The translations under genes were made by a program, and so were the position numbers. A DNA stretch of 64,000 nt, taken from Macrostomum lignano. Its lineage: Eukaryota. Shown here piece after piece: positions 1-39,035 of the stretch; the first letter of the stretch is position 1, and each line of letters begins with the position of its first letter. The notes beneath the pieces were generated by a model. The model saw only the letters and a program-made list of their open reading frames with translations, was not told the origin of the DNA and made no database searches. The stretch is from the NCBI GenBank assembly GCA_002269645.1, contig NIVC01001526.1, forward strand, positions 1 to 64,000, written 5' to 3'.

Positions 1-407
1 TGGTCTTTGGATCAGCCTGTGGATCTCCATAGGTGAACACTTTAATGTTCTGCCATTTTTCATTTGTCTTTGAGGTGCTTTGCATATTCGGCAGCTACAA
101 TTTCAGGGTTACTGGAAGGCTCATTTGGTTATTAAAACATGCAATAATGTCCTCTTTGTTCAGCTTGTTTTGAAGCCCTGCAATCAGCATTCTATACTCA
201 TCTTGATACAGTGTGGGAGAGTAGATGTGGGCAGAGTGTCATAGTCGATAAAGCCAGGTCTAAGAAGCATGTTAAAGACTCTGAATGTTTTACCTGAACC
301 TGATGAACAACAACAATGCATCTGAAGTGACTCGGGATTGACTCATGATGAGAAAACTTAATCTGATTACGTGTCCAGTGAGGATTGAAGTCGTTTGAAA
401 AGTCCAT
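1..407 (-). CDS. Polinton packaging ATPase (FtsK/A32-like), N-terminal part, 2 frameshifts
   Basis: Joining frames gives MDFSNDFNPHW...FRCIVV(G)SSGSGKTFRVFNMLLRPGFIDYDTL.HIYSPTLYQDEYRMLIAGLQNKLNKEDI. This has a Walker A motif GxxGxGKT followed by the LLRPGxxDY motif typical of Polinton ATPases. Confidence 0.85.
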
Positions 408-444
408 TTTTTCTATGATGAAAAAAATTTAAATAATAAATAAT

Positions 445-612
445 GTAGATGTGTCATTTCGGGACTTAGATGTGTCATTTGGGACTTAGATGTGTCATTT
501 TGGGACTTGGATATGTGTTATTTTGGGACTTAGATGTGTCATTTTGGGACTTAGATGTGTCATTTTGGGACTTAAATGTGTCATTTTGGTACTTAATTGT
601 GTCATTTTGGGA
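445..612. repeat. 20-bp tandem repeat (TAGATGTGTCATTTTGGGAC-like), ~8 copies, inside the Polinton
   Basis: Directly visible, between the ATPase start and the stop of the upstream gene. Confidence 0.9.
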
Positions 613-656
613 CTAGTCTTGTACCTTTACATTTCTTGTACCCTCGGAAAGTACCT

Positions 657-1055
657 TTAGTCAAATTTGAAACCACTTCCTTTTTTAATGCTAGCTCTCA
701 TCTTCTCATAGACTGCAGGGTCCACACTGTCTGGATTTGGGGCCAGCGGGGCCAGCGGGCCAGCGGGGCCAGTGGAGGTTGAATCTCTTGTTTAGGTGTT
801 ACAGTATCCTTTTATCTTTTTGGCTGCTGTGGCTACACTGCCAGCAGCGCTTCGGCAACGTTCTTGATGTTCTCTTGTTCTCTCCAATGACCTTAAAAAT
901 CTTAGCCCCCTGAGCGATCAAATCAGCAAGGCCATTCCAGAGCGTTCTTTTCTTGGATAGTGGCCTGCAGGGAAAAGTCCAGATCCGCGTTTAATGAGAT
1001 TAAGTTCCTCTTTGTCATAGTATTTGTCAATGTCTTTTTCGAAAATAATTGGCAT
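657..1055 (-). CDS. Small Polinton structural protein (amphipathic, membrane-lytic/core-protein-like), ~4 frameshifts
   Basis: Reconstructed MPIIFEKDIDKYYDKEELNLIKRGSGLF...G(N)GLADLIAQGAKIFKVIGENKENIKNVAE.AGSVATAAKKIKD...PLAPLAPLAPNPDSVDPAVYEKMRASIKKGSGFKFD*. GxGL motifs and a C-terminal KGSGF resemble small Polinton/adintovirus proteins. Confidence 0.55.
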
Positions 1056-1071
1056 CTTTTTAAATAGAAAT

Positions 1072-2267
1072 TTATTTTTTGTTAAACCGTGAAAGCAAAA
1101 GTTCTCTTGCTCTTTTATCGATATATTTTCTCTCAAGCATTTTGTCCAGGATGTTGACAAATTCTTTTCTATTCTCGTCTTTCATTCCGGTCTTTGCCGC
1201 TCCTAGAAGAACAGCTAACCGCTTGTAGAGATTCAGGCATGCCTTTTCCAGTTGAGGGCGGTTGGTCTTGAGGTTGTGGAGTTGGTTGGGCTTGTGGCTG
1301 CTGGGGAGGTGATGCAAAAGACTGCTCACTTTCAGAGACGGACTGTCATGTGGTGCCTGTCTTTGTTGAGGTGTGAAAACTCTTTGCTTGATTCTGTTCA
1401 TTCGATCTGGAGAGTGTTGTTCTAAGTGTTGCCAATCTGTTGGGTTTTGTTTCTTATATTCAGCTACTTGAGTCGGATCTGCATTTTCCAGTTGCCTGAG
1501 TACTTCTGTGAAATGTTGCTGCTGCTGTGGTTGTGGTTGTTGTTGCTGTTGTTGTTGTTGTTCTAGATATTTTATGACTTCCGCCTGATCTGGCAAATCG
1601 AACCATTGTTTAAAGTGATTGTACTTTTTGAATCTAGTCAGGTTGACACCGTTATCATACATAAGTCTCAGGACTTCTGGGGCCTTTAGTATTGCTATAT
1701 CTCTAGCAAGAGCAAAAGTCACTAGATCTCTATAGTTCTTTAGCTGTTTGTCCGAGATTCTCTCTTGGTTCTTGGTCATAAAAGTCAGTAAGGTTTCTGT
1801 GAAAGGAATGCTCTTAGTTTCCGAGCCTTTGACAACAGAAATATGTTTCTTATTTATGTCGATATAATATTCCACTGGTTCATTATAAATGTTTCTTCTC
1901 ACACATACTTATTCCAAATACATATTTCCCATCATGTTCGACACGCTCTACTGGTCCAAAAATGTTATCTGTCACTTTTAGTTGTGATTGATGTGGTTGT
2001 GGTTGTTGTGGTTGCGGCTGTATCTGTGGTGCTTCTGGAATTTTGCCCAAAACCTTTTGCACTTGGGTTTCCTGTATGTCGTCGATAGTTTCTTTGACCT
2101 GATCAATATTTTTCTTAGCTTCTCCATACCCGGGTTTATGAAACTCTGTGGCTGCTTGGACAAACTCATTGTAGGATTGTTGCTCCTTATTTATTAGCCG
2201 GTAACTCGTTTCTCTGCTTGTGCTAGCTTCTCCAATTCAGATATCTGCTGTGTACTTTTCGCTTCAT
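1072..2267 (-). CDS. Polinton PZ-like protein, frameshifted near the 5' end
   Basis: Upstream frame reads TDNIFGPVERVEHDGKYVFG. The 276-aa ORF ends RLAVLLGAAKTGMKDENRKEFVNILDKMLERKYI. Both resemble conserved PZ motifs. Start at 2267 is tentative. Confidence 0.65.
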
Positions 2268-2297
2268 TTCTTATTTTATTTTATTTTTAGTTAAAAA

Positions 2298-3582
2298 ATG
2301 AACGACCCACTGACACCAGTTTTCTACAAAATTAACAAGCCTATTTTGAGTGATGATAGCACAATCAAAGCGACACAAGTTAGAGTTCCGAGTCACGAGA
2401 ACCAGAATGAAACTAATTTGGTCCAGGTCAAACACTGACATTTACATACAATGGATGTTCGTCTCTGGTTAGTGTGCACAGTCTTAAGAGCGGCTTCCAT
2501 ATGACATTTCAATTCAAGACAAAGGTGGTGCGGATGCGGCTCGTGCTAACGTTGACAAGCATGATGCGGATGTGGCTCTGATCAGTAACTTTTGGGCGTA
2601 CATGTTCAAGGAGTTTAGTGTATCGAATGGGAGCACTGAGTTGGAGCGAATCGCCAACTTTGGAATTGTCTATGACGCTCATTGTTTGATCGAGAATCCT
2701 GATTTTATTCAGTTGGGAAGTGGTGCAGGTTTTATTGCAGACGAAAAAGAAGGAGATATCAATGACAGTGGCTATAAAAATAGGAAGAAGAGATACAACT
2801 ATGCTTTGCAAGGTGCTGATGATGCTGCTAAAAACCCGCTGTATCGGTCTGTTGATGTATTTGTACCATTGAGATTCATGAGTGGATTCTGTAATACATT
2901 TAATCGACTGACTAGTAACTTTAGCTACACATTTAGGATGACTAGAGATGATCGCAGTAGAGTGTTGTGGACTGGGGCGGACCACACAAGGATGGAGGTG
3001 AAGCTAACCGGAATCGAGCTGTATTTGGAAGTCATTGAGCCAAAGACTGCACTAAAAGCAGACTATCTTAAGGCAATAGAGAAGGACATTGATGTTGCAT
3101 ACACAGCCTACATGTGTCGAGATGAGCGAAACGAAACTAGAACAAACATCTGCATTAAAGAGGGATCATGCAGCAATCCAAGGTATATTATTATTAACAT
3201 GAGAAACCCAAATAGCATTATACGCTACATGCATGGTGACGTGCGGTCCATTCAGCATGAAATCAGTGATAATCTTTACCCTGCACTGCCACAAAATGGA
3301 GATTTCAGTCAGAACAAGATTAGCAAATTTTATAGCGAGTTGGTCGACTTGGCTGTGAAAGAGAACAATGGAATTGCTATCACTGCTCTTCAATATGGAA
3401 CTCTATATCCAATGTTTGGCGCTGATGTGTCTGCCAGACAAATGCCTACTGATAACAGCCCTGTGAATATCGTGACCAACATTGAGAGGACTGTCGCAAC
3501 ACCCGTGGACTTGTACATTATCTATGCATTTGAGAGGAAGGTGAAGCTTAACATGATCAACAATTCATCCAGTAAAGTTTAA
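2298..3582 (+). CDS. Polinton major capsid protein (PY, double jelly-roll/hexon-like), ~428 aa after repairing 2 single-base losses
   Basis: MNDPLTPVFYKINKPILSDDSTIK...NETN / FGPGQTLTFTYNGCSSLV...FQFKTK / GGADAA...VALISNFWAYMFKEFSVSNGSTELERI matches the Polinton MCP N-terminus. Frame changes fall at aatttg (~2417) and acaaagg (~2521). Confidence 0.82.
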
Positions 3583-3606
3583 ATATTTTTTTTGTGGGTG
3601 AAAAAA

Positions 3607-4469
3607 ATGGAAGCTATAGCCGAAAGACTAAACAATATTATTTCGCACTCCAAGGAGAGCATTCCTATTACAATAACTGGGCGGATTAATGACTCAAACG
3701 GGATATTTGTTCAAAAATTAGAGCAGGCGATTAGCCTGGATCCAGGTGCTAATTACCATGTCTATCTTAACGACTTCACTGGTTGGTCAAACGTTCCCAA
3801 TGTGACGGCAGCAAATAATAAGTTTTATTACAAATGGAAAGGTGCAGCAGCAGAACCTGTGGTATTCCCTGTGAGCACGCAAAGTGTGGATACCTACAAT
3901 TACTTTCTAGAAAACGTCTTTACTAAAAGAGGCCATTTTGAGACACCTGATATGAGTAAGCCAGAGAAGAAACTGTTCCCTGTTAAACTAACCTATGATC
4001 TCACTGTAATGAGAGTGGTCATGCAAGTTTACAAAGATGCGGAGGTTGAGTTTAAAGATGACACTTGGTATAGGGAATTGGGATTCGTGAAGAAAGTTTA
4101 TAAGGCAGAATCCACAGCGCGGACTGTCACTCAAGCATCGGGGGCCGTTAGCATGGCCGGGAAAGTGTACGCGGTTTGTTCTTAGCACCCAATATAGCAG
4201 ACATTGTAAAGGGTTTGAATATTCTAATCAGAACTAATCTCAGTCTTGATTGGGTATTTAAGGGAAAGCGAACTAATATTTTGTACAACATCTCCAACTC
4301 TGTAGCTGGAGGACAGATGGTGGTAGAGAAACCAAATCCAGTGAAAAGAGTTGTATTGAGTAATAAGGAGATTCACGAGATTGTGCTTCAGTTTGAGACT
4401 GAAGATGGGATGGGCGTTGATTTTAATGGGGAAGAGTTTGTATTGACGTTAATCATTGAGAGAATGTGA
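3607..4469 (+). CDS. Polinton minor capsid protein (penton, PX), one frameshift at ~4175
   Basis: C-terminal ORF NILYNISNSVAGGQMVVEKPNPVKRVVLSNKEIHEIVLQFETEDGMGVDFNGEEFVLTLIIE is the characteristic penton C-terminus. The N-terminal ORF ends LGFVKKVY. Gene lies directly downstream of the MCP. Confidence 0.85.
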
Positions 4470-4473
4470 GAAA

Positions 4474-4713
4474 TCACAATTGCCTAATGATTTCTGCAAA
4501 GTTATAGTAGCTGTCATAATCTTTTACATAGGTTACTCCATACTTATGAAACCAATGTCTTTGGAGAGCTTGATTAATATTAGGGACATTGATTTGAACG
4601 TCGGGCCAATATTTTCTCATGTATTCGCTGCATTCAAGTTTGCATCGGTACTTACTCTTGTAATTAGGCTCGTGCGTTTTGTAATAAGAACCTGGAGAGA
4701 CAACTGGAAACAT
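4474..4713 (-). CDS. Small Tyr/Lys-rich orphan ORF (79 aa) of the Polinton
   Basis: ATG at 4713 preceded by AAAAA like the other viral genes. Convergent and abutting the penton stop. No recognisable domain. Confidence 0.45.
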   Translation of the reverse strand: MFPVVSPGSYYKTHEPNYKSKYRCKLECSEYMRKYWPDVQINVPNINQALQRHWFHKYGVTYVKDYDSYYNFAEIIRQL

Positions 4714-4911
4714 TTTTATTGAAAATTTAATTTTTTTCAAAGGGTAAGGACCCTGCGCTGATGATTTAAAGTCTTAGGGATCTGGTTTCACGTTGCGGAT
4801 TGAATGTGGGGAGAAGAATGCAGATTATTTTCTGATTGTTTCGAAGATGCTATGGGTGGATGTCAGTGGATTATGTCAGTGTCAGTGAGCATAACAGGTG
4901 TCCTACTGTTA

Positions 4912-5885
4912 TGCTCTGATTCTGTCAGGGATAATGCTCTGATTCTGTCAGGGATAATATGGATGGATTTAATGGAATTATGGAGGACGTTTTGTGAGCG
5001 AGTGCGACCCCCTTTTTTTCTGATTCTGTCAGGGATAATATGGATGGATTTAATGGGATTATGGAGGACGTTTTTGGAGCAGGTGCGACCCCCTTTTTTT
5101 CTGATTCTGTCAGGGATAATATGGATGGATTTAATGGGATTATGGAGGACGTTTTTGGAGCAGGTGCGACCCCCCTTTTTTTCTGATTCTGTCAGGGATA
5201 ATATGGATGGATTTAATGGGATTATGGAGGAGGTTTTTGGAGCAGGTGCGACCCCCCTTTTTTTCTGATTCTGTCAGGGATAATATGGATGGATTTAATG
5301 GGATTATGGAGGACGTTTTTGGAGCAGGTGCGACCCCCCTTTTTTTCTGATTCTGTCAGGGATAATATGGATGGATTTAATGGGATTATGGAGGAGGTTT
5401 TTGGAGCAGGTGCGACCCCCCTTTTTTCTGATTCTGTCAGGGATAATATGGATGGATTTAATGGGATTATGGAGGAGGTTTTTGGAGCAGGTGCGACCCC
5501 CCTTTTTTTCTGATTCTGTCAGGGATAATATGGATGGATTTAATGGGATTATGGAGGACGTTTTTGGAGCAGGTGCGACCCCCCTTTTTTCTGATTCTGT
5601 CAGGGATAATATGGATGGATTTAATGGGATTATGGAGGAGGTTTTTGGAGCAGGTGCGACCCCCCTTTTTTTCTGATTCTGTCAGGGATAATATGGATGG
5701 ATTTAATGGGATTATGGAGGACGTTTTTGGAGCAGGTGCGACCCCCCTTTTTTTCTGATTCTGTCAGGGATAATATGGATGGATTTAATGGGATTATGGA
5801 GGACGTTTTTGGAGCAGGTGCGACCCCCTTTTTTTCTGATTCTGTCAGGGATAATATGGATGGATTTAATGGGATTATGGAGGAG
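4912..5885. repeat. ~82-bp tandem array, ~12 copies (probable Polinton subterminal/TIR repeats)
   Basis: Unit TCTGATTCTGTCAGGGATAATATGGATGGATTTAATGGGATTATGGAGGACGTTTTTGGAGCAGGTGCGACCCCCCTTTTTT; varies mainly in homopolymer length. Confidence 0.92.
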
Positions 5886-6513
5886 GTGAAAAATTTTGTC
5901 CCAGAAGCCCGCCATGCCTTCTACTATTGAGTCGTTTTTCGGGAAGATCGTTGCAACTCGTCCAGGTTCTAAGCCCAATGTCTCCTTGTCTCGAATACGG
6001 CAACTACTTACACCAAGACAAGGCCTCGATGATGCTTAATCTGATCAATCAGTCAGGCTCAAGCTCTTCCAAAGCCACCCCCGTGCTCATCTGACTCGCA
6101 CTAGCCGCTCTCTCCCACTCCCACTCTAGCTCATATTAGGCTATTTCTATATCCACTCTTTTTTCCCGGGCGCGCTTTAAATCTCTGAACGTGGAATTCT
6201 GCTGCGTAATAGCCACAATGTTCCCCCATACAGTATGTTCAAGCGGGCAGTGTGTATGTAAATAGGCTCTATTGGATGTGGCTCTACTAAGGCTTTAAAA
6301 CATCGCGCTTCTATACTGCATAGAGAGACAGTTATATAGTTGCCATCAATCTTAAAATAAATCTACTGCTGCATATCATATGGTAAAGAACTGGGTAGTT
6401 TTAATTGCAGATTGCAAACTGGAACTGTCTTGTGAGATACTGGCTGCCTTCTACTCGTAGTTGGATTCGGGCGACTTTTTCAAACTACCAATGCACGTAG
6501 CTTCGGCGTTGTG

Positions 6514-7069
6514 CTGGCCCTATCTGACACCACATCTTGCGTCCATCTGGCCCTATCTGACACCACATCTTGCGTCCATCTGGCCCTATCTGACACCACA
6601 TCTTGCGTCCATCTGGCCCTATCTGACACCACATCTTGCGTCCATCTGGCCCTATCTGACACCACATCTTGCGTCCATCTGGCCCTATCTGACACCACAT
6701 CTTGCGTCCATCTGGCCCTATCTGACACCACATCTTGCGTCCATCTGGCCCTATCTGACACCACATCTTGCGTCCATCTGGCCCTATCTGACACCACATC
6801 TTGCGTCCATCTGGCCCTATCTGACACCACATCTTGCGTCCATCTGGCCCTATCTGACACCACATCTTGCGTCCATCTGGCCCTATCTGACACCACATCT
6901 TGCGTAAATCTGGCCCTATCTGACACCACATCTTGCGTCCATCTGGCCCTATCTGACACCACATCTTGCGTCCATCTGGCCCTATCTGACACCACATCTT
7001 GCGTAAATCTGGCCCTATCTGACACCACATCTTGCGTCCATCTGGCCCTATCTGACAACACATCTTGCG
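6514..7069. repeat. 33-bp minisatellite, ~17 copies
   Basis: Unit CTGGCCCTATCTGACACCACATCTTGCGTCCAT, nearly identical copies. Confidence 0.95.
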
Positions 7070-7691
7070 CCTTTTTAGCACCCAATTCAACTGAAGCTTA
7101 TTTTGACGCTTCTAACGGTCGTTAATAAAAATAGATTGTCAAGAAAAAACTAGAACCAGCAATACGTCAAATGAATACCAAGATGTCAAATGAATATCAA
7201 GTTCCTTTAAACCAATGAAACATCTAACAAATGGAGTAGATATAAATTTTAGCTACCAATTTGAAGATCGTTATATTTAAATTGGGGACGTCAAATTCTT
7301 ATGATACTACTTGAAACTACTGAAGTTGCTGCATTATGGGCGATTCTGCATTTCCCATTTTCCTTTGAAACGGAATGAAGCTCTTTGGTTTGAGACAAAT
7401 CTTGATACTTTCAGCGATTTAATTAAAGAAGGCAAAGTTTGGTTTGGAGAGGCACACAAAATGGTCAATTATTAGTTTCATAAGTGCTATACATGTGGCT
7501 AATTTATTACCTGTACTTTTACTAGTTTATCTACTTCGAGAATAAAATCGCTTGGATGCTGTAGGCAGGCACGCACTCACACAGGTGTACAGCAACCATT
7601 TTGTGACTTTCAAATTGTCAGACATGTACACTCCCTGTGCCTTGGGGTCTGGGTCTCATGGCTGTGAGTCGCTCGATAACCCACTCCACTG

Positions 7692-8431
7692 CTACTTGAT
7701 GCAGCAGAACCAAATCCAACCGATGGTGCTGATGAACAGCAGCAGCAGCACCATCAGCCAGGTGAACATGCCCGGCCCACCGCCCACGCCGGCCTCTGCT
7801 AGCCGAACTCGATTTTGCTCGACTGAGATTTGCTCAGTCTCTGAGTCATCGCCGGTGCCGACTTTCGCTGGCGGCGACTGCGGTGGCTGCACTGCGGAAG
7901 GCTGCCGAGCTTGAGAGCTTCGAGGCTTGGCTGGCTGTCGAGGTGCAACTTCTTTAACAATTTCTTCCGTTGTTGTTGTTGTTGCTTCTGCCGCTTTTGC
8001 TGTTGTTGCAGACTCTGTTGTTGCTACCGTGGCTTTCGCCGACGAAGACGCCTGAGGACTTGAAGCTGAAGGACTTACCTCATTGAGCGATGGCTTAGAT
8101 GTTGACTTTGTGGAAGCTTTTGGTGAAGCAGTCGAGACTGCAACTTCTGGCTCTTTGCTGGCTGCTCCAGCAATTGTCGATAGCACTGATGAAGCTGAGT
8201 TGGTGATTTGTTTTTCAGCTGCCGAAGAAGCCTCGAAAACTGATGTAGTTTGAGCAGCCTGAGTTCCTGCCGCTGCTGTGCTTTGCGCCACTGCAGCTCC
8301 TGCTGATGCTGAGGCTTCGGAGGTCGCAGACCCTGACGGCATGAGCAGGTCGTCAAAACCGGCCCAGTCACCGCCACCACCGCCGCCTCCTCCTCCTTCT
8401 GCATCGCCTGAGGCCGCCTGAAGAGCGGATG
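7692..8431 (-). CDS. Exon 2 of a mucin/proteoglycan-like type I membrane protein (270 aa total)
   Basis: Acceptor tttcacttcag| at 8432, phase 1 matching the exon-1 donor. S/T/A-rich stalk, SGD/acidic patch, TM helix MFTWLMVLLLLFISTIGWIWF, tail CCIK*. Confidence 0.78.
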
Positions 8432-8465
8432 CTGAAGTGAAATCAGGGGTGACACACTTGGGTTA

Positions 8466-9790
8466 ATCTGCTCCAGAATCTGCTATTAGATCTGCTCCAG
8501 AATCTGCTATTAGATCTGCTCCAAAATCTGCTATTAGATCTTCTTTAGAATCTGCTATTAGATCTGCTCCCGAATCTGCTATTAGATCTGCTCCCGAATC
8601 TGCTATTAGATCTGCTCCTGAATCTGCTATTAGATCTGCTCCTGAATCTGCTATTAGATCTGCTCCTGAATCTGCTATTAGATCTGCTCCAGAATCTGCT
8701 ATTAGATCTGCTCCAGAATCTGCTATTAGATCTGCTCCCGAATCTGATGATACATCTGCTCCTGAATCTGATGGTACATCTGCTCCTGAATCTGATGGTA
8801 CATCTGCTCCTGAATCTGATGATACATCTGCTCCTGAATCTGATGGTACATCTGCTCCTGAATCTGATGGTACATCTGCTCCTGAATCTGATGGTACATC
8901 TGCTCCTGAATCTGATGGTACATCTGCTCCTGAGTCTGATGGTACATCTGCTCCTGAGTCTGATGGTACATCTGCTCCCGAATCTGATGGTACATCTGCT
9001 CCCGAATCTGATGGTACATCTGCTCCTGAGTCTGATGGTACATCTGCTCCTGAATCTGATGGTACATCTGCTCCTGAATCTGATGGTACATCTGCTCCTG
9101 AATCTGATTGTACATCTGCTCCTGAATCTGATGGTACATCTGCTCCTGAATCTGATGGTACATCTGCTCCTGAATCTGATGGTACATCTGCTCCTGAATC
9201 TGATGGTACATCTGCTCCTGAATCTGATGGTACATCTGCTCCTGAATCTGATGGTACATCTGCTCCTGAATCTGATGGTACATCTGCTCCTGAATCTGAT
9301 GGTACATCTGCTCCCGAATCTGGAATTAGATCTGCTCCTGAATCTGATGGTACATCTGCTCCTGAATCTGATAGTACAGTACATCTGCTCCTGAATCTGA
9401 TTGTACATCTGCTCCTGAATCTGATGGTACATCTGTTCCCGAATCTGCTATTATATCTGCTCCCGAATCTGGAACTAGATCTGCTCCTGAATCTGATGGT
9501 GCATCTGCTCCTGAATCTGATGGTACATCTGCTCTCGAATCTGGAATTAGATCCGCTCCTGAATCTAATGGTGCATCTGCTCCTGAATCTGATGGTACAT
9601 CTGCTCCAGAATCTGATGGTACATCTGCTCCTGAATCTGATGGTACTGTACATCTGCTCCTGAATCTGATGGTACATCTGCTCCAGAATCTGATGGTACA
9701 TCTGCTCCTGAATCTGATGGTACTGTACATCTGCTCCTGAATCTGATTGTACATCTGCTCCAGAATCTGATGGTGCATCTGCTCCTGAAT
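8466..9790. repeat. 24-bp intronic minisatellite
   Basis: Unit TCTGCTCCTGAATCTGATGGTACA with a left-end variant ...CTGCTATTAGA. Fills the intron 8432-9836. Confidence 0.95.
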
Positions 9791-15500: not shown

Positions 15501-15942
15501 GGGTATTCTTGGTCTTGGCACTAGCTTTATTAGGATTTAGACTTTGAAACTAAATTGTTGGAACTTGAATTGGGATTCAAGTTTGGGACTCCAGGGTTCT
15601 TGACACTACGTCAAGGTCTATGAAGACCTGCCAAGAGGTTGGAAATCCTTCCACCCTACCAGGGGGAAAAGCTGGGATCATGGAAGGAACCTGCTTGTTA
15701 CTGATTCAACTAAGATCCATCCCCAAACCCACCATCATCCCCTTGTTCCCGAATTCCCATTGGTTGTGCCTTTGCGAACCCACCCTCGGCGCCGGTAAAG
15801 CGACCCAATCCTGCGACTTCTCTCAGTGGTAAGAAAAACCGATCTTATTACTTTTAGCTAAACACCGGTGTCAAGTAAGCCACTTGAGATAAATAAAACT
15901 TCGAAGCAGATAATTAAAAAACAAACTGCATTAATAACTAAT

Positions 15943-16288
15943 ATGTCGCGTCATTATCAGCACCAGCAGATTTATGATCCCCAAATTGCCTGCCCAGAGC
16001 AATACCTGACTCAACAGCCGTATCACCATCAAGGTCACGTGCTCTATCAACAAGCCTCAGAAGCTGCCACCAATATACTTCAGTCGCCTCAATGTGCATT
16101 CGCTAGCGAAAATGCGTCAACGGTTGGCATGGCAACAACTCTTCATCAGCATGGCAGCGGGTCAGCAGTCAGGCCGGATTCAACCAGCCCGTGCTGCAGC
16201 AACGACAGCGGCGGACAGGCTGGCGGATTCAGTGCGGCGCCGTTCAAATGGATGGAGATCAAACGGCATCAGGCTAGGATGGCGAAAG
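15943..16288 (+). CDS. lab: Hox1/labial exon 1 (hexapeptide exon)
   Basis: MSRHYQHQQIY...SAAPFKWMEIKRHQARMAK carries the FKWM hexapeptide. Donor G|GTGAGC, phase 1. Confidence 0.88.
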
Positions 16289-16389
16289 GTGAGCCTTTGC
16301 TGTGTTTCTGCTTCTGATTTAATGAATGGTAAACCGAATAGTTAGCAAACTGAGTGTCAGGTGGTGTCAAACTGAGTCTAGAAGTGTCT

Positions 16390-23832: not shown

Positions 23833-24272
23833 GCTGCAGACGAGCTTCTCAACAAACACAGCAACAGGAGGAACTGAGCTCGCCGCAGGCGGTTAAGCAG
23901 ACCCAGCAGCCGCAGTCAAGCACGTCAGTCGACTGCCCAGCAACATCATTCGTTGACTCGGCGAATTCCAGCTGCCCAATGCTCGCGGCAAACCCGACGG
24001 GACGAACCAATTTTACAAACAAGCAGCTGACTGAGCTGGAGAAGGAGTTCCACTTCAACAAGTACCTGACCAGGGCCCGGCGGATTGAGATCGCCACCAG
24101 CTTGAAGCTTAACGAGACCCAGGTGAAAATCTGGTTTCAGAACAGGCGGATGAAGCAGAAGAAGCGGCAGAAAGAGTCCAGCTTCCTGATGAAGCACCGG
24201 TCAGTCAAGGAGTGTGGCAGCGAGGATGAGGCAGCTGCCAAGTCAGTAATACGTTTGGTGCAATCGTTGTGA
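23833..24272 (+). CDS. lab: Hox1/labial exon 2 (homeodomain); joined CDS 261 aa
   Basis: Acceptor ttatattttcag|, phase 1. Homeodomain [60 protein letters not shown] has the paralogue-group-1 diagnostic [17 protein letters not shown] and RARRIEIA. Confidence 0.96.
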
Positions 24273-27950: not shown

Positions 27951-28766
27951 CAAATGAGGTATCTAAAACAGTAAGTTGATCGATGCAGTCATTAACATCA
28001 AATACAGAAATAAAGATACACGCGCGTAGGACAGAACAAATATTAAGCCTCAGAATAATCATTAAAATCAATGAGAAATGCACAACAAATGAATTTCGTG
28101 CAGTGTTTAGAGACATCCCCTATATTTATTACATCCCTACTAATTACTCAACGCATGACAAATATATCAACCAAATTTCTAAGTCAAAATGCGAAAAAAA
28201 TGATGGTTTAACTGCTTATACAAGGTTCGCGAACTGTCAACGAATCGATATCAGAACCCCCCCTCAGACGCACAGAGAGAGTACATGCCTGACGATTAGA
28301 AGGTCAAAAAGGATGGAGAGTTGCAGTACACCCTGTGTGAGCGTGTCTTTGAGTGCATTTGTACGCGGTATGTGCTCAATGAGTTTGCGGAAAGGGCAGA
28401 ATTGCCTTAGGGATACTTGTGGAATGTATCGCCAGACGCATTGCGCCAGGGTGCCCAAAGACCTCTTGCAATTATTACATTATTCTGTTCCATTGAATAT
28501 GACTCGAAGCAAGTCTTAGAAGGAGGGTCCCAACAAATTCGAAGCCAGAGGCTTTTTATCTAGAGAGTACCTAAGAGATATGTAAAAATGACAATGCACA
28601 CAGTAACTTTTTCTGATTTGAACTTGAAAACTTGTAAATTTGTACGCGTATAAAGCTGTACTTTTAATCAAACACAAGCGACCCGAAATGGTCCTTGGCT
28701 GCGTCTAGTAACAAATAGAGGTCATTGCTACTCTCGAACAGCCCATGCAATGTTCTGCTTTCGTCT

Positions 28767-29168
28767 TCAACCCTCGGCACCCTCGCCGCCCTCCTGAATG
28801 GCGTCAAGATTCTGCAAGGCTGAGAAGTCGAACGAACGACGGCGCAGCTGCTTGCTGAGGTCGGTTGGCAGCGGCATGGTGTCCATGGCCAGCTTGGCCG
28901 CCTGGCCTTGCGCCGGCAGATCCGGGCTGCGTTGCAGGGCCAGCTGCCGCAGCCGATGCCGCAGCTCGCCGGTGTCCGCCTCGTCGCTGTGTACCGAGGG
29001 CAGCGATCTGGATCGCCGGGAGCGTTGCGCTGGCTGCGCGGGCAGAGAGAGATTCAGCCGCCGCTTATCGACAACCGCGTCGCTCGTGGCATTCGACTCG
29101 GGCTTGACGCTGCTGCCGGCGGGCTCTTCCTGAGCATCAGCAAAGTCTATGCGAATCTGGGGCTCCAT
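28767..29168 (-). CDS. Orphan single-exon protein, 133 aa
   Basis: GC-rich ORF in AT-richer flanks with plausible composition (RRSRSLP, RRRSF kinase-site-like motifs). ATG is directly preceded by ctgttag. No domain recognised. Confidence 0.6.
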   Translation of the reverse strand: MEPQIRIDFADAQEEPAGSSVKPESNATSDAVVDKRRLNLSLPAQPAQRSRRSRSLPSVHSDEADTGELRHRLRQLALQRSPDLPAQGQAAKLAMDTMPLPTDLSKQLRRRSFDFSALQNLDAIQEGGEGAEG

Positions 29169-31274
29169 CTAACAGTTTGAATCTTTGTTTAATAGACAGA
29201 CAGGCAGGCAGACTTGCATTATGCATGTAGCTTCTCTGTGGCCCTTTTATAACGTTAATCACGTGATCTATTCCAGGGATTTAACTCAGCCAGTAGGATT
29301 TGAGCGGGATCTTGGGCTCGAGGAAAAACGGAAAAGACTTCTAATCTTCCAGGGTTGACGAGAAATTCGTTCTAGCAAAAAACTATTTCCGCAAAGAAGA
29401 AAAACGGATGACTTTGACTGCGGTTTTACCGGTGGTCAGGTACAGGCTTATTATTGTACGCATGCAGACCTGCTACAGATTTCAGTTATTTTGTTCGAAA
29501 AATGTAAAATCATTAATAATTCCTATAATACTGATAAAGGCACGCTTGTACAATTAGTTTGATTTAATTAAGCTTGATGCGACCTTTCGCAGGACATCGC
29601 ATGGGCTTTTAGCCCCGATGCATGGAGCCTATCGCTTCGAGCAATATCAGAGGCAAAAAAGCTATTTTTACAAAATCCCGACAAACGGAGGTTAAAGTAC
29701 AACTTGGACTCAACTTAAACTTGGAAATCAACAAGAATCCATAAATTAATAATCTTGAAGACTATGCTGTATACCTGTGGCAAAGGACCCAATCTGTTGG
29801 ACTGTAAAGAGGGTCAATTATAAGTTGTAGGTGATGTGTCCGCATGCCAGGTTGATAAGGCAGCCTGTACTGAAGCCAGATTTGTCCATGTTGGACCAAT
29901 TCGGGGACGTCACAAGTTATAGAAGTCTGGCCACTGGGCGAATGGGACCAGTTTACCATATATTCTCCGCTAAGAACTCAATGGGCTATAATTTTCCAGT
30001 GCACAGCAAGCGAACAGGTGCCCGCACTCCCATACAGGTATTGTAGATGGCTGATCTAGAAGCTTCTTGTCTCGGGGCAAACATAACGATAAAGGCTTAT
30101 AGGTTTGGTAAATTCAGACTTGCTGATTACTTTTAAGCCACTAAAGTACATTAAGTTGTAGCAAAATTGTAACTAGTTAGTGGGAGTAGAAAACTATACT
30201 GAAAACTAAACTATACTATAGTTCAAAGTTACCCTTGGTTGCAATTGAGGAAGCTTTTGAAGTGATAGCACCCGACATTTTTGTAGGCTTCCCAACTTGA
30301 GCCCTATTAATATTGCTTAGATCTTTGTTGCACGCTTAGTAACAGATTCATAATTACGATGTGGAAATTCGAAGAATATCATGACAAGCTAATTCCTTTT
30401 CGAATGGTGAAAATTGAATTTGTCAAATAAAAGAAGAAAATAAGAGGAATCGAGAGACTCCCGGAAATGAGTCTCGAGGGCATACTGGGATTCTGGAATC
30501 GGCATGAGTTTCGAGGGCCGCCCACTGCAGACAGTTTTGCTTAGACATCTGGATGTCCTAGCCAGAACCAAATCTGATGCAAGACGTAGTAACTTCGTTA
30601 TTGTCTACTATAGGATTAACGAATCAATATTCATTACATATTCGTAATCTTTATCACTGTAGAATCTTGTCTTAATTCTACAAGTCCAGATCTCAAGATT
30701 AAAAAATTATCTCGTAAGATTTTTTCCATAGTCTTTAGGCCTGAAAAAGTTTAAAACTTCGAAGCTGCTGCTGCACTTCATTGCTGGGCTGCTCTTTCTG
30801 CTGTTTTAGGGAGAAAAGTTGTCTAGGATTTTGTTTTTTTTAAGCTGCATAATATTAAGCTGCATATCATGTTAAAGTAGCAAATTCTTGACTTATCAAA
30901 AAGTTATGACGAAATACTCGTTAATTTTGAAAAAGGTTTCGTTATAAAAAGATAAAGAGTACATATTGTTGGACAGGCTTTAAGTTAGACCTCTCTTTAG
31001 GTCAAATGAGATCTTAACATGGAGGCGCAGTAATTTGCTGCTTTCACTTTCAGCAATAGCTTTTTATTTTCCTTATAGTCGGCTGGCTCTCTTTTAGCCG
31101 CAGTCAGATTCTGTACTGTAGCATTTTTATGCCATAGACGGAAACGAAAATATAAATAACTTGCGAGCCAGGGACAACTAAAACCTGTTGTTTTAGTTGT
31201 CCCTGTTGCGAGCACTTTCAAGCTAGCACACAAAGCTACACGCTCCTACACATATCAACAAAAATTGAGATGTT

Positions 31275-31467
31275 GGGCCGTATGCAGAAAGCCTAGTCCA
31301 GACTAGCTAGTCCGGACTTGGGTAGTTCAGTCTATAGTCTATGGTCTAGCTAGCCTAGTTCTGCTATAGTAGACTGGTCTAACTTTGTGTTTCTGCATAC
31401 CAAATCCAAGTCTAGACTAGCCTTTCAAGACCGGACTACCCTAGACAGAGCTTTCTGCATACGGCCC
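31275..31467. mobile_element. PIF/Harbinger-like MITE
   Basis: Perfect TIR GGGCCGTATGCAGAAAGC...GCTTTCTGCATACGGCCC with internal CTAG/AGTC palindromic repeats. 3-bp TSD imperfect (GTT/ATT). Confidence 0.72.
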
Positions 31468-31579
31468 ATTGAACCGAACTGATTAGTCAGATAAATATGT
31501 TCTTCTTTAGGACGAAGTCACGAGACTCTTCTTATAGTGCAGGCTGTAATGTATTTTATCTCGATTTAAAATGATCAAT

Positions 31580-33868
31580 TCAGAGCACTTGGTTCCATCG
31601 AATGCATTTCTTTGCGGGATTCAACGGTTCACCCACGGCACAATGGAACACGGATGAGAACTGATTCGTGTTCATAACGGCTCCGTTAACCGTGGCCTTG
31701 GCCCAGTCAACTTGGCGCGAGTTGTCAGGCCCGGTGGTCGAAGAGCACCAGTTTTGAGCAATCCGCAGAAAGAACAGTTTACTAGGAGTCAAGTTCAGAG
31801 CCGCCGACTCTGCACTGGCATTCGTGCGTCACTGAACAACCGAGGAACCAACTCTAAACCATAGGCAATGTGCTGTACAGCCAGCACGTCGAGCACGTAC
31901 TCGTGGAGTCTCTGCCGTAGTTGATTATCCAATGACAGCAGAGTACGCTGACTATCAGTGAAATTCCACCAGGCATTGTTGCTGTGCATTTTCATGTACT
32001 GATCCGTCAAGCAGACGGACAACTGTGTGGACATGTGTTTCGAATATAGCAAATTTCTTACGACCTCTTCGTCGAAGGCAATACCACCGAATGACTTAGC
32101 CAAAGCCAACCCAAAGCCAGCCAAGTTCATATAAGTCGGGTAGGAGTGGTGAAGTGCTGGAGGAGACAACATTCCAAGCGGTAGGACTGTCTGATGATAT
32201 AAAAAGGTACTGACAAACTTCACTGCTTTGTCAGACAAAGGATTCACAAGGTCAAATGCGCGCACGTTTCGCTCTTTAGTAAGTAATGCTAGAAAACCGT
32301 TGCGCCAATTCGCTCGAAGAGATGTCGATAGCAGACTACCAAAGACACTGGCAGATGAATTTAAGTCACTAAAGTTGTTTAAATTACTCGGCTTATAAAA
32401 GAAATTAAGCCTCGACTCTGTCAGGTAATCAAAACCGATGCTGTGAACGAGGGCGTCCCATCTGTGTTTGGCTAGGAAACGGTGGGACTGATTGGAAAAA
32501 TTACCTGTCTTAATCAACTTTGCCCCGATGACGAGTTCTATTTCCAGGATTTGATTGGCAATCAGCGTATTATTCGGTGAAACTTTGGCAAACCGCTTGT
32601 CCAGCATTTCAGCAACTATGTCCTGCAGTCGCCACTTTGTAAATTTCAAGCATCTCAGTTGGCCCTCGTTTCTACGCAGCTGTGCAGTATAATTTTTTGT
32701 AATCGTCATTCGGGAAGAACTTTTCAAATGCAGCCAGCCATGTTAGCAGCAGAAATGACGACTGCTTGCTTCGAAGAAATTCATTCTCATTTGTTGGCTC
32801 GTACTGTTTGAAGTAGTTGGCAAAGTTAATTACCGACAAAAGATTGACAACTTTGAAGTTGTTCGACAAAACGAAAGTGTTATTCGGTCCAACGACTCGC
32901 TGGAAAAATTCAGTCCAAATAAAGTGTTTCGCATTAGTCGAGCACCTGCTGAGCTGATCCAGTTGGTATAGCGACATATTCTCGCTCATCTTGGTCAAGT
33001 CCGACACATTCAGGGCCCCGACGCATTGCGGAATCCATGATTCGTTTTTTTAATGAGCTGTTTAGGGCGTCGAATACTTCTAGGCCATCGTCTAGGCTAC
33101 TTCGGTTGAAATAGGTAGCCGTTAGATAAACTTTCTGAATTGTTCCTGAAAAATCCTCCTTCGCAAGACTTTCTTTAATGTCCAAGGCATTCGAATTTAA
33201 GCTCAATTCAGTCACAAGATGTTCATAACCAGAAACCCATGTGTCCGACAGATAGTGATTCGAAACTACCGCGCTTCCGCGCAGCATTTCGTCAGGAATA
33301 GACACTTTCAACGCGTCGCTACTACCGCTTCTGACTAGCGCAGCCAAGAACGCTTCCGCCTGGAATTTCTGTCCAGCTCGAACTTCAGCCAGCAGTGGAT
33401 GGAGAATGCCGAGTAGGAAGTCGGTTGAAATTTTGCTTCCATTGCTTTCAGAACCAGAAATCATCCACTCGGAGCAGCTATTGAAGAACGCCCTAGCAAA
33501 GCTATAAACTTCATTGTTGCTAACGTTTGTGTCATTAAACAGATCGTCGCGATTAAGAACGTCGTGCACCTGTCGATTCAGTACGTCAGAGTACATAACT
33601 TTGGCGTCCAACTGCCTGCCAGATGGCCAATCGGTGTGATCAAACAAAGCGGTATAGTTGACGGTGGCGCGGTCAAAGCCTCCGCAGGCGTATTCGTAGA
33701 AGTCAGCGCAAGGATTTGCGTCCCGATTCATCCAGCTGAGCAGCCGGTTGGTTAGGCTGGCGCATTCTCTGGCGTGCGACACGTCGAACTGGCGGCAGGA
33801 GAGCGATTGGCAGTTGAGCGCAGGGCGAAACAGCCCAGTAGACAGAGAATTAACGCAAGATGTCGCAT
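31580..33868 (-). pseudogene. Intronless neprilysin-like (peptidase M13) gene, catalytically degenerate, 4 frameshifts
   Basis: Signal peptide MRHLALILCLLGCFA; C.TPEC...NPCADFYEYACGG; YPTYMNLAGFGLALAKSF where HExxH is expected; C-terminal LTPSKLFFLRIAQNWC...VNGAVMN...FHCAVGEPLNPAKKCIRW. Frame breaks at ~33770, ~33048 (A7), ~32697 (A6) and ~31810. Confidence 0.8.
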
Positions 33869-34087
33869 GAAGCCGTTTCAGATTTGGAACTCATTTGACT
33901 ATACCATAGGCGAATAAAATTGTTATGCTTAATATCTGCGCATTGCCAGATATCAAAAGAATATTTATTAGTTAGCCTAGGCGTGTTGAAACGGGTGAAG
34001 CGCACAGCAACCCGCCCGCTGCAATTATCTATGGCCGGCTTCAATAAATAAAAAACTCGTATACGTATGCATATACATGTAATAATG

Positions 34088-34446
34088 GTATTTAAACCAC
34101 TTTAAAGCTCACTTTCAGGGAGGTTATTGACATAGATTTTATTTCGCGGGATTTAATCGATCACTTTCCCGGACATATTGCAAGGATTATTGTATGTACC
34201 TAAATAAGCGAGCTTCTCTCTTCTCTTCCTTCGTGATTCGAGAAATTTCTTTATGAAATTTTGTCTATGGTAAGAATGTGGGGGCTTCGCCCCCACACCC
34301 CCATCCCCAACTTCAACCATAGACATACAAGTATGGCTGCGGGATTTATCTGAATACATCCCGCAAATTTAAAGTAGTTTAAATACGATATTCTATGGGG
34401 TTTTCAGTCGGTATTTCACATACCGACCTCAAACCCATAGAATATC
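34088..34446. repeat. Inverted-repeat-bounded segment (34088-34386) plus adjacent ~60-nt hairpin (34387-34446); MITE-like
   Basis: GTATTTAAACCACTTTAAA versus TTTAAAGTAGTTTAAATAC (18/19 complementary). GATATTCTATGGG...GTCGGTAT/ATACCGAC...CCCATAGAATATC folds back. Confidence 0.55.
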
Positions 34447-34549
34447 TTATCATAACCGAACAGAATACTGAAATCTTGCTGTCTAATATTTCACTCCAAT
34501 TACATTACAAGAAGGACGTACATGTAGCTACAAAAACGTAGCAATTTTT

Positions 34550-34800
34550 ATTACACCTGCCCCCATTGGACTAGATGTGCAACCGACAGCTCAGCCGCAG
34601 CTATTTTGAAGGCTGCGTACGGCTGTTCAGTCCAAGGACTGGGGGGGGGGTCCCACACACACCATCAATTACCCCAGATAATGTTGGCACCCATTTTACA
34701 GCTGGGTGAACTGAAGCAATGCACAGTTTAAATGTCTTGTTAAGGACACAAATTATTCCGAGTGGGTCGAGGGAATCGAACCTCCGACCTCAGACGCTTT
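34550..34800 (-). mobile_element. tRNA-derived SINE copy (same family)
   Basis: Same body as 26040-26326 with small deletions. Confidence 0.85.
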
Positions 34801-35351
34801 AAGCCACTAGGCTTAAGAGGTAGCAAATGAATTGCCGCTAAAAACAATTGATTAAAAACTACGGCTCTTAAAGATTGTTTAGATTTTTTCACATATTACT
34901 GCTGTCTAAAAACGAAAAAGAAATTACTAAAATTCATCCACGTATCGGATAAAACTATTTTTACCTAACTGAGAAAACGAAATCGCAAAATTTATGTTGC
35001 AACTGGGCCAGAGCGCGTTATTATTTTTGTTTGTCGTGTGTAGCTTTTTTTCTAACCGACAGTTGAATTCGCTATTGCAAGTAGTTCATTTGAAATAAAA
35101 AATACTAACTAGGTGTTAAGAGTTTGTTGCTAAGTCTGCAGTTTTCAAGATTGCAAAGATTGCAGCATTGCTAATAGGGAAACTACTACAATAAAATCTG
35201 TGGGTTGCGAGAGGGCTAGGGGTTCAATCAAATAACAAGAGCTATAGCCGAACTGTAACAGCATATGCGCATATTATAAACTATTCTAAATTGTCCACCA
35301 ATTACTAGCTCGTGTTTATATGAGTCTTATCATTATTTTTCCAGAATAAAA

Positions 35352-35606
35352 TCACTGGTGCTCCCAGTACAGCTTAGCGTGCATCTCGTCAAGGGCATCG
35401 TTAACGTAGAGAATGGCGTACGGCCGATTGTTGGCCTCTGTGATTTGCTCTTCCTTTGGCAGAATCTCGTGTCTAGCGCTCAGGTAAGCGGCCTGCACAT
35501 GGCGGAACACGCGGCCCTCCTGTTCTTCGCGTGGCAAACGTTGGATCGCTTCGTGCACGTGATCGCGATACGTGTCGTACAGCTGGTCATCGTCCACTAG
35601 GCCCAC
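35352..35606 (-). CDS. UQCRB: Cytochrome b-c1 complex subunit 7 (QCR7/UQCRB), exon 2
   Basis: GLVDDDQLYD...HEAIQRLPREEQEGRVFRHVQAAYLSARHEILPKEEQ...RPY matches the UCR_14kD pattern GLxxDD...EAxxRLP...R..R...A..LS..H.ILPKE. Acceptor ccaacaaag|, phase 0. Confidence 0.88.
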   Translation of the reverse strand: MGLVDDDQLYDTYRDHVHEAIQRLPREEQEGRVFRHVQAAYLSARHEILPKEEQITEANNRPYAILYVNDALDEMHAKLYWEHQ

Positions 35607-35629
35607 CTTTGTTGGGAAGAGTGGGCAGG

Positions 35630-37030
35630 TGACTATTGAGAGTAAAATTCGACTATTGTAAGAGTGAGTCTACCACTGAGAGTGACAGTTGTGACTATTG
35701 AGAGAGTGACAGTTGTGAATACTGAGAGAGTGACAGTTGTGACTATTGAGAGAGTGACAGTTGAGGCTATTGAGAGAGTGACAGTTAAGACTACTGAGAG
35801 AGTGACAGTTGAGACTATTGAGAGAGTGACAGTTGTGACTATTGAGAGAGTGACAGTTGAGACTATTGAGAGAGTGACAGTTGAGACTATTGAGAGAGTG
35901 ACAGTTGAGACTATTGAGAGAGTGACAGTTGAGACTATTGAGAGAGTGACAGTTGAGACTACTGAGAGAGTGACAGTTGAGACTACTGAGAGAGTGACAG
36001 TTGAGACTACTGAGAGAGTGACAGTTGAGACTACTGAGAGAGTGACAGTTGAGACTATTGAGAGAGTGACAGTTGTGACTATTGAGAGAGTGACAGTTGA
36101 ACTATTGAGAGAGTGACAGTTGAGACTACTGAGAGAGTGACAGTTGAGACTACTGAGAGAGTGACAGTTGAGACTACTGAGAGAGTGACAGTTGAGACTA
36201 CTGAGAGAGTGACAGTTGAGACTACTGAGAGAGTGACAGTTGAACTATTGAGAGAGAGCCAGTTGTGACTATTGAGACAGTGACAATTGCGAATATTGAG
36301 AGTGAAAATTGCGAATATTGAGAGTGAAAATTGCAAATATTGAGCGAGTGAAAATTGCGAATATTGAGAGTGAAATTGCGAATATTGAGTGACAATTGCG
36401 AATATTGAGAGTGAAATTGCGAATATTGAGAGTGAAAATTGCAAATATTGAGCGAGTGAAAATTGCGAATATTGAGAGTGAAATTGCGAATATTGAGTGA
36501 CAATTGCGAATATTGAGAGAGTGAAAATTGCGAATATTGAGCGAGTGAAAATTGCGAATACTGAGAGTGAAATTGCGAATATTGAGCGAGTGAAAATTGC
36601 GAATATTGAGAGTGAAATTGCGAATATTGAGTGAAAATTGCGAATATTGAGTGAAAGTGCGAATATTGAGTGACAATTGCGAATATTGAGAGTGAAATTG
36701 CGAATATTGAGTGACAATTGCGAATATTGAGAGAGTGAAATTGCGAATATTGAGTGACAATTGCGAATATTGAGAGAGTGACAATTGCGAATATTGAGAG
36801 AGTGAAAATTGCGAATATTGAGAGAGTGACAATTGCGAATATTGAGAGAGTGACAATTGCGAATATTGAGAGAGTGAAAATTGCGAATATTGAGAGAGTG
36901 ACAATTGCGAATATTGAGAGAGTGAAAATTGCGAATATTGAGAGAGTGACAATTGCGAATATTGAGAGAGTGACAATTGCGAATATTGCGAGAGTGAAAA
37001 TTGCGAATATTGAGAGAGTGACAGTTGCGA
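35630..37030. repeat. 24-bp minisatellite filling the QCR7 intron, two graded subtypes
   Basis: GAGAGAGTGACAGTTGAGACTATT grading into GAGAGAGTGAAAATTGCGAATATT. Confidence 0.95.
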
Positions 37031-37091
37031 CTATCGATAGAGAAAATACCTACGAGTAGATAGATATTCAGCAAACAGCAAATTGGCATAC

Positions 37092-37250
37092 CTTCCTATG
37101 TTGGGCGGAAGTCATCATGAGCTTGTCAGCTCTGATCTTGACACTTTCGTCCTGCAGTCGGCGCTGCATCAGCTCCTCGTGGCGCTGCACCATGGCGCGA
37201 GCGTAGGAGCCAACGTACTTGGCGACAGACTTGGCAGTCTTGCTAGCCAT
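37092..37250 (-). CDS. UQCRB: QCR7/UQCRB exon 1 (53 codons; joined protein 137 aa)
   Basis: MASKTAKSVAKYVGSYARAM...SAQHRK then |GTATGC donor, phase 0; same high-GC3 codon style as exon 2. Confidence 0.8.
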
Positions 37251-37429
37251 TCGAGATTTCGGCTATCGTGCAGCAATAGTTAAAACAGTTAGTTACTATG
37301 CTCGAATGATGCTCGAACAAGAAACTCTGTTGGCTGAAGGGGAAAGTAAGAAACAAGCTAATTAAAGCGAACTTCAAGGTAAATTATTAATAAAGTAGCC
37401 AACATTAAAATATTGCTGCTGGAGCCAGT

Positions 37430-39035
37430 CAGGGGTGAAGGGCGACTCTTGAAGGGGGTGGAGGCCGACTCTTGAAGGGGGTGAATGGCGAGTCTTGAAG
37501 GGGTGAAGGGCGACTCTTGAAGGGGGTGAATGGCGAGTCTTGAAGGGGTGAAGGGCGACTCTTGAAGGGGGTGAATGGCGAGTCTTGAAGGGGTGAAGGG
37601 CGACTCTTGAAGGGGGTGGATGGCGAGTCTTGAAGGGGTGAAGGGCGACTCTTGAAGGGGGTGAATGGCGAGTCTTGAAGGGGTGAAGGGCGACTCTTGA
37701 AGGGGGTGGAGGCCGAATCTTGAAGGGGGTGAATGGCGAGTCTTGAAGGGGTGAAGGGCGACTCTTGAAGGGGTGAAGGGCGACTCTTGAAGGGGGTGGA
37801 GGCCGAATCTTGAAGGGGGTGAATGGCGAGTCTTGAAGGGGTGAAGGGCGACTCTTGAAGGGGGTGGAGGCCGAATCTTGAAGGGGGTGAATGGCGAGTC
37901 TTGAAGGGGTGAAGGGCGACTCTTGAAGGGGTGAAGGGCGACTCTTGAAGGGGGTGGAGGCCGAATCTTGAAGGGGGTGAATGGCGAGTCTTGAAGGGGT
38001 GAAGGGCGACTCTTGAAGGGGTGGAGGGCGACTCTTTAAGGGGTGGAGGGCGATTCTTGAAGGGGTGAAGGGCGACTCTTGAAGGGGTGAAGGGCGACTC
38101 TCTAAGGGGTGAAGACCGACTCTTTAAGGGGTGAAGGACGACTCTTGAAGGGGTGAAGACCGACTCTTTAAGGGGTGAAGGACGACTCTTGAAGGGGGTG
38201 AATGGCGAGTCTTGAAGGGGTGAAGGGCGACTCTTGAAGGGGGTGGATGGCGAGTCTTGAAGGGGTGAAGGGCGACTCTTGAAGGGGGTGAATGGCGAGT
38301 CTTGAAGGGGTGAAGGGCGACTCTTGAAGGGGGTGGAGGCCGAATCTTGAAGGGGGTGAATGGCGAGTCTTGAAGGGGTGAAGGGCGACTCTTGAAGGGG
38401 TGAAGGGCGACTCTTGAAGGGGGTGGAGGCCGAATCTTGAAGGGGGTGAATGGCGAGTCTTGAAGGGGTGAAGGGCGACTCTTGAAGGGGTGGAGGGCGA
38501 CTCTTTAAGGGGTGGAGGGCGATTCTTTAAGGGGTGAAGGGCGACTCTTGAAGGGGTGAAGGGCGACTCTCTAAGGGGTGAAGGGTGACTCTTTAAGGGG
38601 TGAAGGGCGACTCTTGAAGGGGTGAAGACCGACTCTTTAAGGGGTGAAGGACGACTCTTGAAGGGGGTGAAGGGCGACTCTTTAAGGGGTGAAGGGCGAC
38701 TCTTGAAGGGGGTGAAGGGCGACTCTTTAAGGGGTGAAGGGCGACTCTTGAAAGGGGTGGAGGGCGACTCTTGAAGGGGTGAAGGGTGACTCTTGAAGGG
38801 GTGAGGGTGACTGTTGAAGGGGGTGAAGGGTGACTCTTGAAGGGGTGAAGGGTGACTCTTGAAGGGGTGAAGGGTGACTCTTGAAGGGGTGAAGGGTGAC
38901 TGTTAAAGGGGGTCAAGGGTGACTCTTGAAGGGGTGAAGGGCGACTCTTGAAGGGGTGAAGGGCGACTGTTGAGGGGGTGAAGGGTGACTCTCTAAGGGG
39001 TGAAGGGCGACTCTTGAAGGGAGTGAAGGGCGACT
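37430..39035. repeat. 21-22-bp G-rich minisatellite with higher-order blocks
   Basis: GAAGGGGTGAAGGGCGACTCTT alternating with GAAGGGGGTGAATGGCGAGTCTT and GGAGGCCGAATCTT variants. Confidence 0.95.

Follow-up and report, generated by a model that had tools for sequence, protein, structure and literature searches.

Capsid-side end of a complete, recent and high-copy Polinton in Macrostomum lignano

The window analysed here is a stretch of 64,000 nucleotides at the start of Macrostomum lignano contig NIVC01001526.1 (C1526, in an assembly of 764 Mb and 5269 contigs). Its positions 1–5925 are the right end, about one third, of an 18.6-kb Polinton/Maverick that is truncated by the contig start. Taken together, the data make this probably the capsid-side end of a complete, recent Polinton from a high-copy family likely to be spreading as an endogenous virus, with most breaks in its genes likely being errors. 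The element integrates, encodes a complete set of morphogenesis genes under constraint and has spread very recently. It is almost certainly a Polinton, the defining features found being a protein-primed DNA polymerase (pPolB), an RVE integrase, terminal inverted repeats (TIRs) with AG-rich tips, a 6-bp target site duplication (TSD), a double jelly-roll (DJR) major capsid protein (MCP), an A32 ATPase and a C5 protease. What is new is this very young family; Polintons as a kind are already known.

One insertion has been assembled three times, in C1526, C3826 and C5003. The element has the tips AGTAG...CTACT, and its right end lies exactly at 5925, followed by the target duplication ATTGAG (5926–5931, plus strand). 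The right flank is present in four contigs, and the same filled junction was also seen in C5003. From the left flank we reached C3826, in which AGTAGAAGG comes after ATTGAG; the 6-bp duplication flanks this insertion on both sides. An empty site with a single ATTGAG is present in C1374 and C463, to which the filled chromosome is 98–99.7% and 93–98% identical, respectively, in unique flanking sequence. The entire element spans 56322 to ~74918 of C3826 (18.6 kb), and this contig stops 25 bases beyond the right tip. The gene order there is PLA2-like, rve integrase, pX-like, pPolB, C5 protease, two more open reading frames (ORFs), ATPase and then the genes of the window. The first-pass annotation, made from the window's letters, had placed the pPolB/integrase half to the left; it was indeed found in the C3826 and C5003 copies of the insertion, where the left TIR, the 6-bp TSD and the genes for the rve integrase, pPolB, C5 protease, PLA2-like protein and pX were recovered.

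Of the right TIR (4476–5925, ending in CTACT), only 4920–5925 recurs at this insertion's left end, where the inner 445 bp are missing. Of 20 end pairs examined, 15 had an exact 6-bp TSD (two of these 15 being repeats of an already counted site), one matched at 5 of 6 positions and four had none. Within the TIR lies an 82-bp tandem array (4938–5884) of 12 units, its counterpart at the left end (C3826:56322-59612) having 40; in other copies 1–4 units were counted, with 3 in the near-identical sister copy in C3609.

The genes of the left half were recognised by profile. The integrase is a 345-aa ORF in C3826 (rve, 34.7 bits; cut-off 32.6) and the protease matched Peptidase_C5 (22.4 bits; cut-off 21.3); Phospholip_A2_4 and Adeno_PX also exceeded their cut-offs. 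The pPolB of this insertion is in pieces, and a 1127-aa frame of another copy scored 62 bits with DNA_pol_B_2 (cut-off 25.8) and has Exo and Pol motifs. Its N-terminus shows OTU-like Cys and His motifs at residues 92–98 and 201–205, read by eye; this vOTU reading follows PMC11161782. A nuclease-like domain within pPolB matched Endonuclease_7 under the cut-off (E=8e-4). The PLA2-like (PF08398) and adenovirus pX-like (PF05829) genes are separate ORFs on opposite strands, flanking the integrase (C3826, L059:701-2690).

The MCP gene (2298–3582, plus strand; 428 aa in most scored copies, its frame interrupted in the window near 2419 and 2520) gave a sequence profile match under the cut-off (DJR-like_dom, E=3e-5). 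As a single-sequence fold reached a predicted local distance difference test score (pLDDT) of 31, an alignment-based model was used instead. It was built with a 106-row alignment on a copy that has an intact 428-aa frame without repair and shares ~97% identity with that of the window. The model has a pLDDT of 94.5 and superimposes on PBCV-1 with Z 25.0 (root-mean-square deviation 3.5, 344 aligned residues), on Sputnik with Z 21.5 and on mavirus with Z 20.3; the faustovirus capsid protein was also matched. The top 16 rows of the structure search were all capsid/scaffold proteins of one fold lineage, and unrelated folds began at Z 7.7. By its predicted structure, the MCP of the family is a double jelly roll, which is what the fold check proposed in the first-pass annotation called for. 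The closest relatives are nine proteins on short contigs (43–77% identity), the next clusters being at ~25–27%. No locus was found when viral and metagenome contigs were scanned with the MCP alignment, cluster look-ups for 20 MCP homologues gave no informative name, and no named adintovirus hexon stood out in a BFVD search, the best named rows having template modelling (TM) scores of ~0.6 at 7–13% identity.

Next to the MCP, a 287-aa gene (3607–4469, plus strand; 13 homologues at 39–65% identity) encodes a putative penton/minor capsid protein. It is open in C5003 and broken near 4156 in the window. Its position adjoining the MCP and its size are compatible with a penton, and the Atlas look-alikes of one homologue, compared in place of the window protein, are viral clusters (TM 0.78–0.79). 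Comparison with the PDB by sequence and by profile returned chance-level matches only, and there was no informative Pfam match. On the minus strand, residues 1–135 of a 266-aa A32/FtsK-like packaging ATPase occupy 1–407, as located by tblastn with the C5003 ORF. The gene runs from an ATG at 407, carries several frame breaks in the window assembly and has a Walker A motif (GSSGSGKT) that is interrupted near 307; the part with Walker B falls outside the window, to its left. An unbroken copy matched Pox_A32 (27.1 bits; cut-off 22.8). Also on the minus strand are a conserved 132-aa ORF (1055 to ~657) and a Gln/Pro-rich 398-aa ORF (1072–2267) that is open in C5003. The former is labelled ‘pm’ from its position only, following the gene order in PMC8097293; the latter takes the ‘pz’ position. 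The ATPase with Walker A, MCP, penton candidate and PZ-position ORF thus lie where the first-pass annotation had put them, in the divergent layout it described. The gene that it called PZ-like exists, but the likeness is one of gene position only, as the 398-aa ORF had no Pfam or NCBIfam match; and its remark that most of the module was invisible in the ORF track was overstated, stop-to-stop frames of 364, 278 and 200 aa being present.

The family is large and young. The terminal 29-mer has 440 exact occurrences (control, 0), corresponding to ~220 elements. Because the Hox1 homeodomain itself recurs in the assembly (three matches at 98–100% and four more at 97%), the assembly is redundant and such copy counts are inflated. 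All 112 MCP copies scored from 625 candidates are 97–100% identical, and 101 of them have a frame of at least 428 aa without a stop; these 112 are the best-scoring subset and hence biased towards intact genes. The sister copy in C3609, which occupies a different site, is 99.8% identical, with 5 substitutions over 7.3 kb. Ratios of nonsynonymous to synonymous differences (pN/pS), obtained as simple pairwise counts from 2–20 copies per gene, were 0.05–0.29 across all 11 genes tested: 0.076 for the MCP (20 copies), 0.19 for the penton (19), 0.09 for the ATPase (11), 0.14 for the protease (12), 0.106 for the integrase (8), 0.05 for the 132-aa ORF (9) and 0.19 for the 398-aa ORF (18). In fish Mavericks, such selection has been taken as evidence of particle formation (PMC8097293). 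Reads of three runs, guessed to be RNA, covered 30 of 30 bins including intergenic ones, as DNA reads of a 200-copy family would too. Our literature search, with most subscription papers and RepBase outside its coverage, found no paper on this Polinton family and no fold-back Polintons among the papers listed.

The frameshifts in the window were compared with the other assemblies of the same insertion. Window positions 1–7241 differ from C5003 by 26 indel bases and no substitution, with 4 in the following 8.8 kb. C5003 has open frames for the ATPase, the penton candidate and the 132-aa and 398-aa proteins, and its MCP is broken at another place than in the window. Within 1–4937, 19 of 23 indel positions are private to the window relative to C5003 and C3826, 14 of these in the first kb; C3826 has 15 private indels. 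Since indels without substitutions distinguish the window from a duplicate assembly, most of its frameshifts are, as judged from aligned contigs, very probably assembly errors and not decay. The pattern of private indels suggests that low coverage led to consensus errors towards the ends of contigs. A frameshift seen in a repeat copy close to a contig end in this assembly should not be taken as a signal of decay.

Several observations weigh against a family spreading as a virus whose breaks are mostly errors. The window and C3826, but not C5003, have breaks near 2197, 2419 and 2520; these may be real, systematic, or derived from common erroneous reads. The same 364-aa MCP frame occurs in two other insertions, and the window-private indels show no homopolymer enrichment (37% against a background of 35%). 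Only 5 of 150 scored pPolB matches (from 917 candidates) lie in open frames above 1100 aa, a scarcity that could stem from error or from real decay. Related copies are not independent in the pN/pS counts, and purifying selection among them may date from the ancestral virus population, not from present activity. The virus reading draws on assembled contigs.

These points bear on whether the burst is over, the copies having entered as a virus or amplified recently and now decaying, with no particles made today. The shared breaks, the 145 pPolB matches in frames below 1100 aa, some of them with stops, and the many deleted, nested and interrupted copies would fit such an extinct burst. We nevertheless consider it rather unlikely, given that the three assemblies of one insertion break at mostly different places, that a sister copy is 99.8% identical and that full-length pPolB and MCP frames are present. 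Less probable still is an active self-synthesizing transposon confined to the cell, in which the capsid module is a passenger or has some function inside the cell, without release of infectious particles. Derivatives that lack both pPolB and integrase carry perfect TSDs, so spread needs no complete genome in cis, as such a transposon would allow; yet the MCP is as constrained as the integrase (pN/pS 0.076 vs 0.106), all four morphogenesis genes are under constraint, and MCP homologues at 70–77% identity occur on other short contigs. The balance remains with an endogenous virus of recent spread, and we lean slightly towards particles being made today.

If so, the cycle might resemble that proposed for Polintons (PMC4028283, PMC8502044). 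An excised linear copy would be replicated from its AGTAG ends by protein-primed pPolB, in analogy to Polintons and adenovirus; MCP trimers and penton would form an icosahedral capsid, into which the A32-like ATPase would package DNA, and the C5 protease would mature the particle. The PLA2-like and pX proteins could aid entry, after which the rve integrase would insert the copy, duplicating 6 bp. Faulty replication would yield deleted and fold-back derivatives, integrated by the integrase in trans. Infectious-particle formation by animal Polintons has so far been supported mostly indirectly, by selection (PMC8097293) and by unpublished co-purified DNA (PMC8502044). Particles and new insertions could well be sought in the present family, which is young, numbers hundreds of near-identical copies, is polymorphic for insertion and keeps its capsid genes under constraint; the many public sequencing runs of this host enable such observation.

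The 112 MCP matches include three inverted pairs, each on one contig, which represent two loci. Both are fold-back elements, in which two nearly identical capsid-side arms lie head to head between flanks of their own, with a perfect TSD; one arm of each starts in or beside a 21-bp intergenic tandem array (8 copies, 446–614 in the window). The 11.2-kb fold-back is one locus on three contigs (C276:289398-300645, C3945:57496-68440 and C1652 ~28602-39935). Its arms are 99.7–99.9% identical, ordinary copies being ~90–95% identical to each other; it has a 6-bp TSD and a 10-bp overlap at the junction, contains no integrase or pPolB, and in C1652 its spacer is flipped relative to the flanks. The 13.1-kb fold-back (C633:134497-147606; TSD CCACTG) carries 208 bp from the 5' region of the MCP gene at its junction, which was seen only in C633 among 40 scored.

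One fold-back junction recurs in three contigs, and an adapter-hairpin artefact is disfavoured because the centres are asymmetric. Misassembly across the 4.7-kb inverted arms may be involved, above all in the flipped spacer; none of 32 short-read pieces (of ~1000) bridges the fold-back junction of locus A. In form, the fold-backs look like copy-back products of strand-displacement replication, an analogy drawn from adenovirus. A bolder version, in which an active, particle-forming germ-line virus combines an undescribed capsid lineage with a common pPolB and has its copy-back genomes, which lack integrase and most or all of pPolB, integrated in trans with spacer flip, as integrated defective-interfering genomes, is doubtful.

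Other derivatives were noted. Minis consisting of TIR only (640–716 bp; C124:22982-23697 and C289:58541-59180) share one site with a TSD. Forms of 3.6–3.8 kb retain the penton and all or part of the MCP (C544:473028-476600, C105:570682-574517), and an 8.7-kb form is without pPolB (C33:768924-777592). At C2829:83151 and C4149:28278, one family copy contains the end of a second, in a nested or tandem arrangement.

In the animal Polintons/Mavericks described in PMC4028283 and PMC8097293, we find the same size range of 15–20 kb, pPolB, RVE integrase, FtsK/A32 ATPase, protease, DJR MCP with an adjacent putative penton, TIRs, 6-bp TSD, a similar pz-pm-atp order and core genes under purifying selection. 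The tip here is AGTAGA, whereas in vertebrate Polintons it is (AGT)2 or (AG)3; as further differences, the MCP and putative penton point outward and the TIR holds an 82-bp array. The ~220 end pairs in this redundant assembly compare with a vertebrate median of 8 and at most 38 intact elements. Integrase, adenain, FtsK, hexon and the putative penton are shared with adintoviruses (PMC8502044). The PF03175 match is weak (E=5e-17), which would fit the divergent Beta-class adintovirus OTU-PolB described there, with less than 30% identity to the pfam03175 type. A PLA2-like gene is typical of Alpha adintovirus virion modules; the Alpha module has a fused PLA2X, in contrast to the two genes found here (PMC8502044). 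The nuclease-like match in pPolB recalls the pPolB2 Polintons of nematodes, which have an HNH insertion there (10.1101/2023.08.22.554363), and the strain-specific insertion sites of those elements, a sign of recent activity, recall the polymorphic site here.

A search with pPolB gave 5559 matches at E<=1e-30 among 7990 scored, the best 120 having 42–47% identity; named relatives among these 120 are from Sycon (sponge), Elysia (sea slug), and Oculina and Dendronephthya (corals). From these comparisons, pPolB appears to be of a common invertebrate type, with only the capsid module divergent. The first-pass annotation's ‘divergent lineage’ therefore holds for the capsid module, with its gap between 43–77% and ~25–27% identity, and not for the polymerase. 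Because the one is divergent and the other is not, a module swap between the capsid lineage and a common pPolB is possible.

The Hox1 gene that had been noted ~10 kb away was borne out. Its probable first exon lies in an ORF at 15862–16317, ~10 kb from the element, and the Hox1/labial homeobox, outside the element at 24000–24182 (plus strand), has HOXB1 as best match (E=5e-29), ~18 kb away. This proximity is all that speaks for a domesticated or regulatory insertion acting on Hox1, which is very improbable. Two Hox1-bearing contigs have the empty site, and for that reason no functional link is drawn from nearness; moreover, the insertion is one of hundreds, a further long ORF (7692–8462, minus strand) intervenes, the copy bears no sign of specialisation and nothing was found tying the element to Hox1 regulation. 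The site is most likely a chance insertion.

Minor observations concern intergenic and neighbouring sequence. The MCP and the 398-aa ORF start head to head, with 30 bp between their start codons (2268–2297), and an A-rich run precedes the start of all seven genes inspected. The regions upstream of the ATPase (408–432) and of the penton candidate (3583–3606) have an AT-rich/T-run motif in common; such elements may have a promoter or trans-splice role. Five loci from three copies gave no Rfam match at the gathering threshold, and so no group I intron. The left accessory region differs among copies. The C110 copy (L020:3564-4385 and 8049-9259) has a 273-aa ORF there without Pfam match; it also contains an inserted segment with a tyrosine-recombinase ORF and in turn disrupts a gag-pol-like ORF. 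Host DNA at 6514–41807 is rich in minisatellites with periods of 4–40 bp, and at 31795–33890 (minus strand) two ORFs gave weak M13 peptidase matches under the cut-off.

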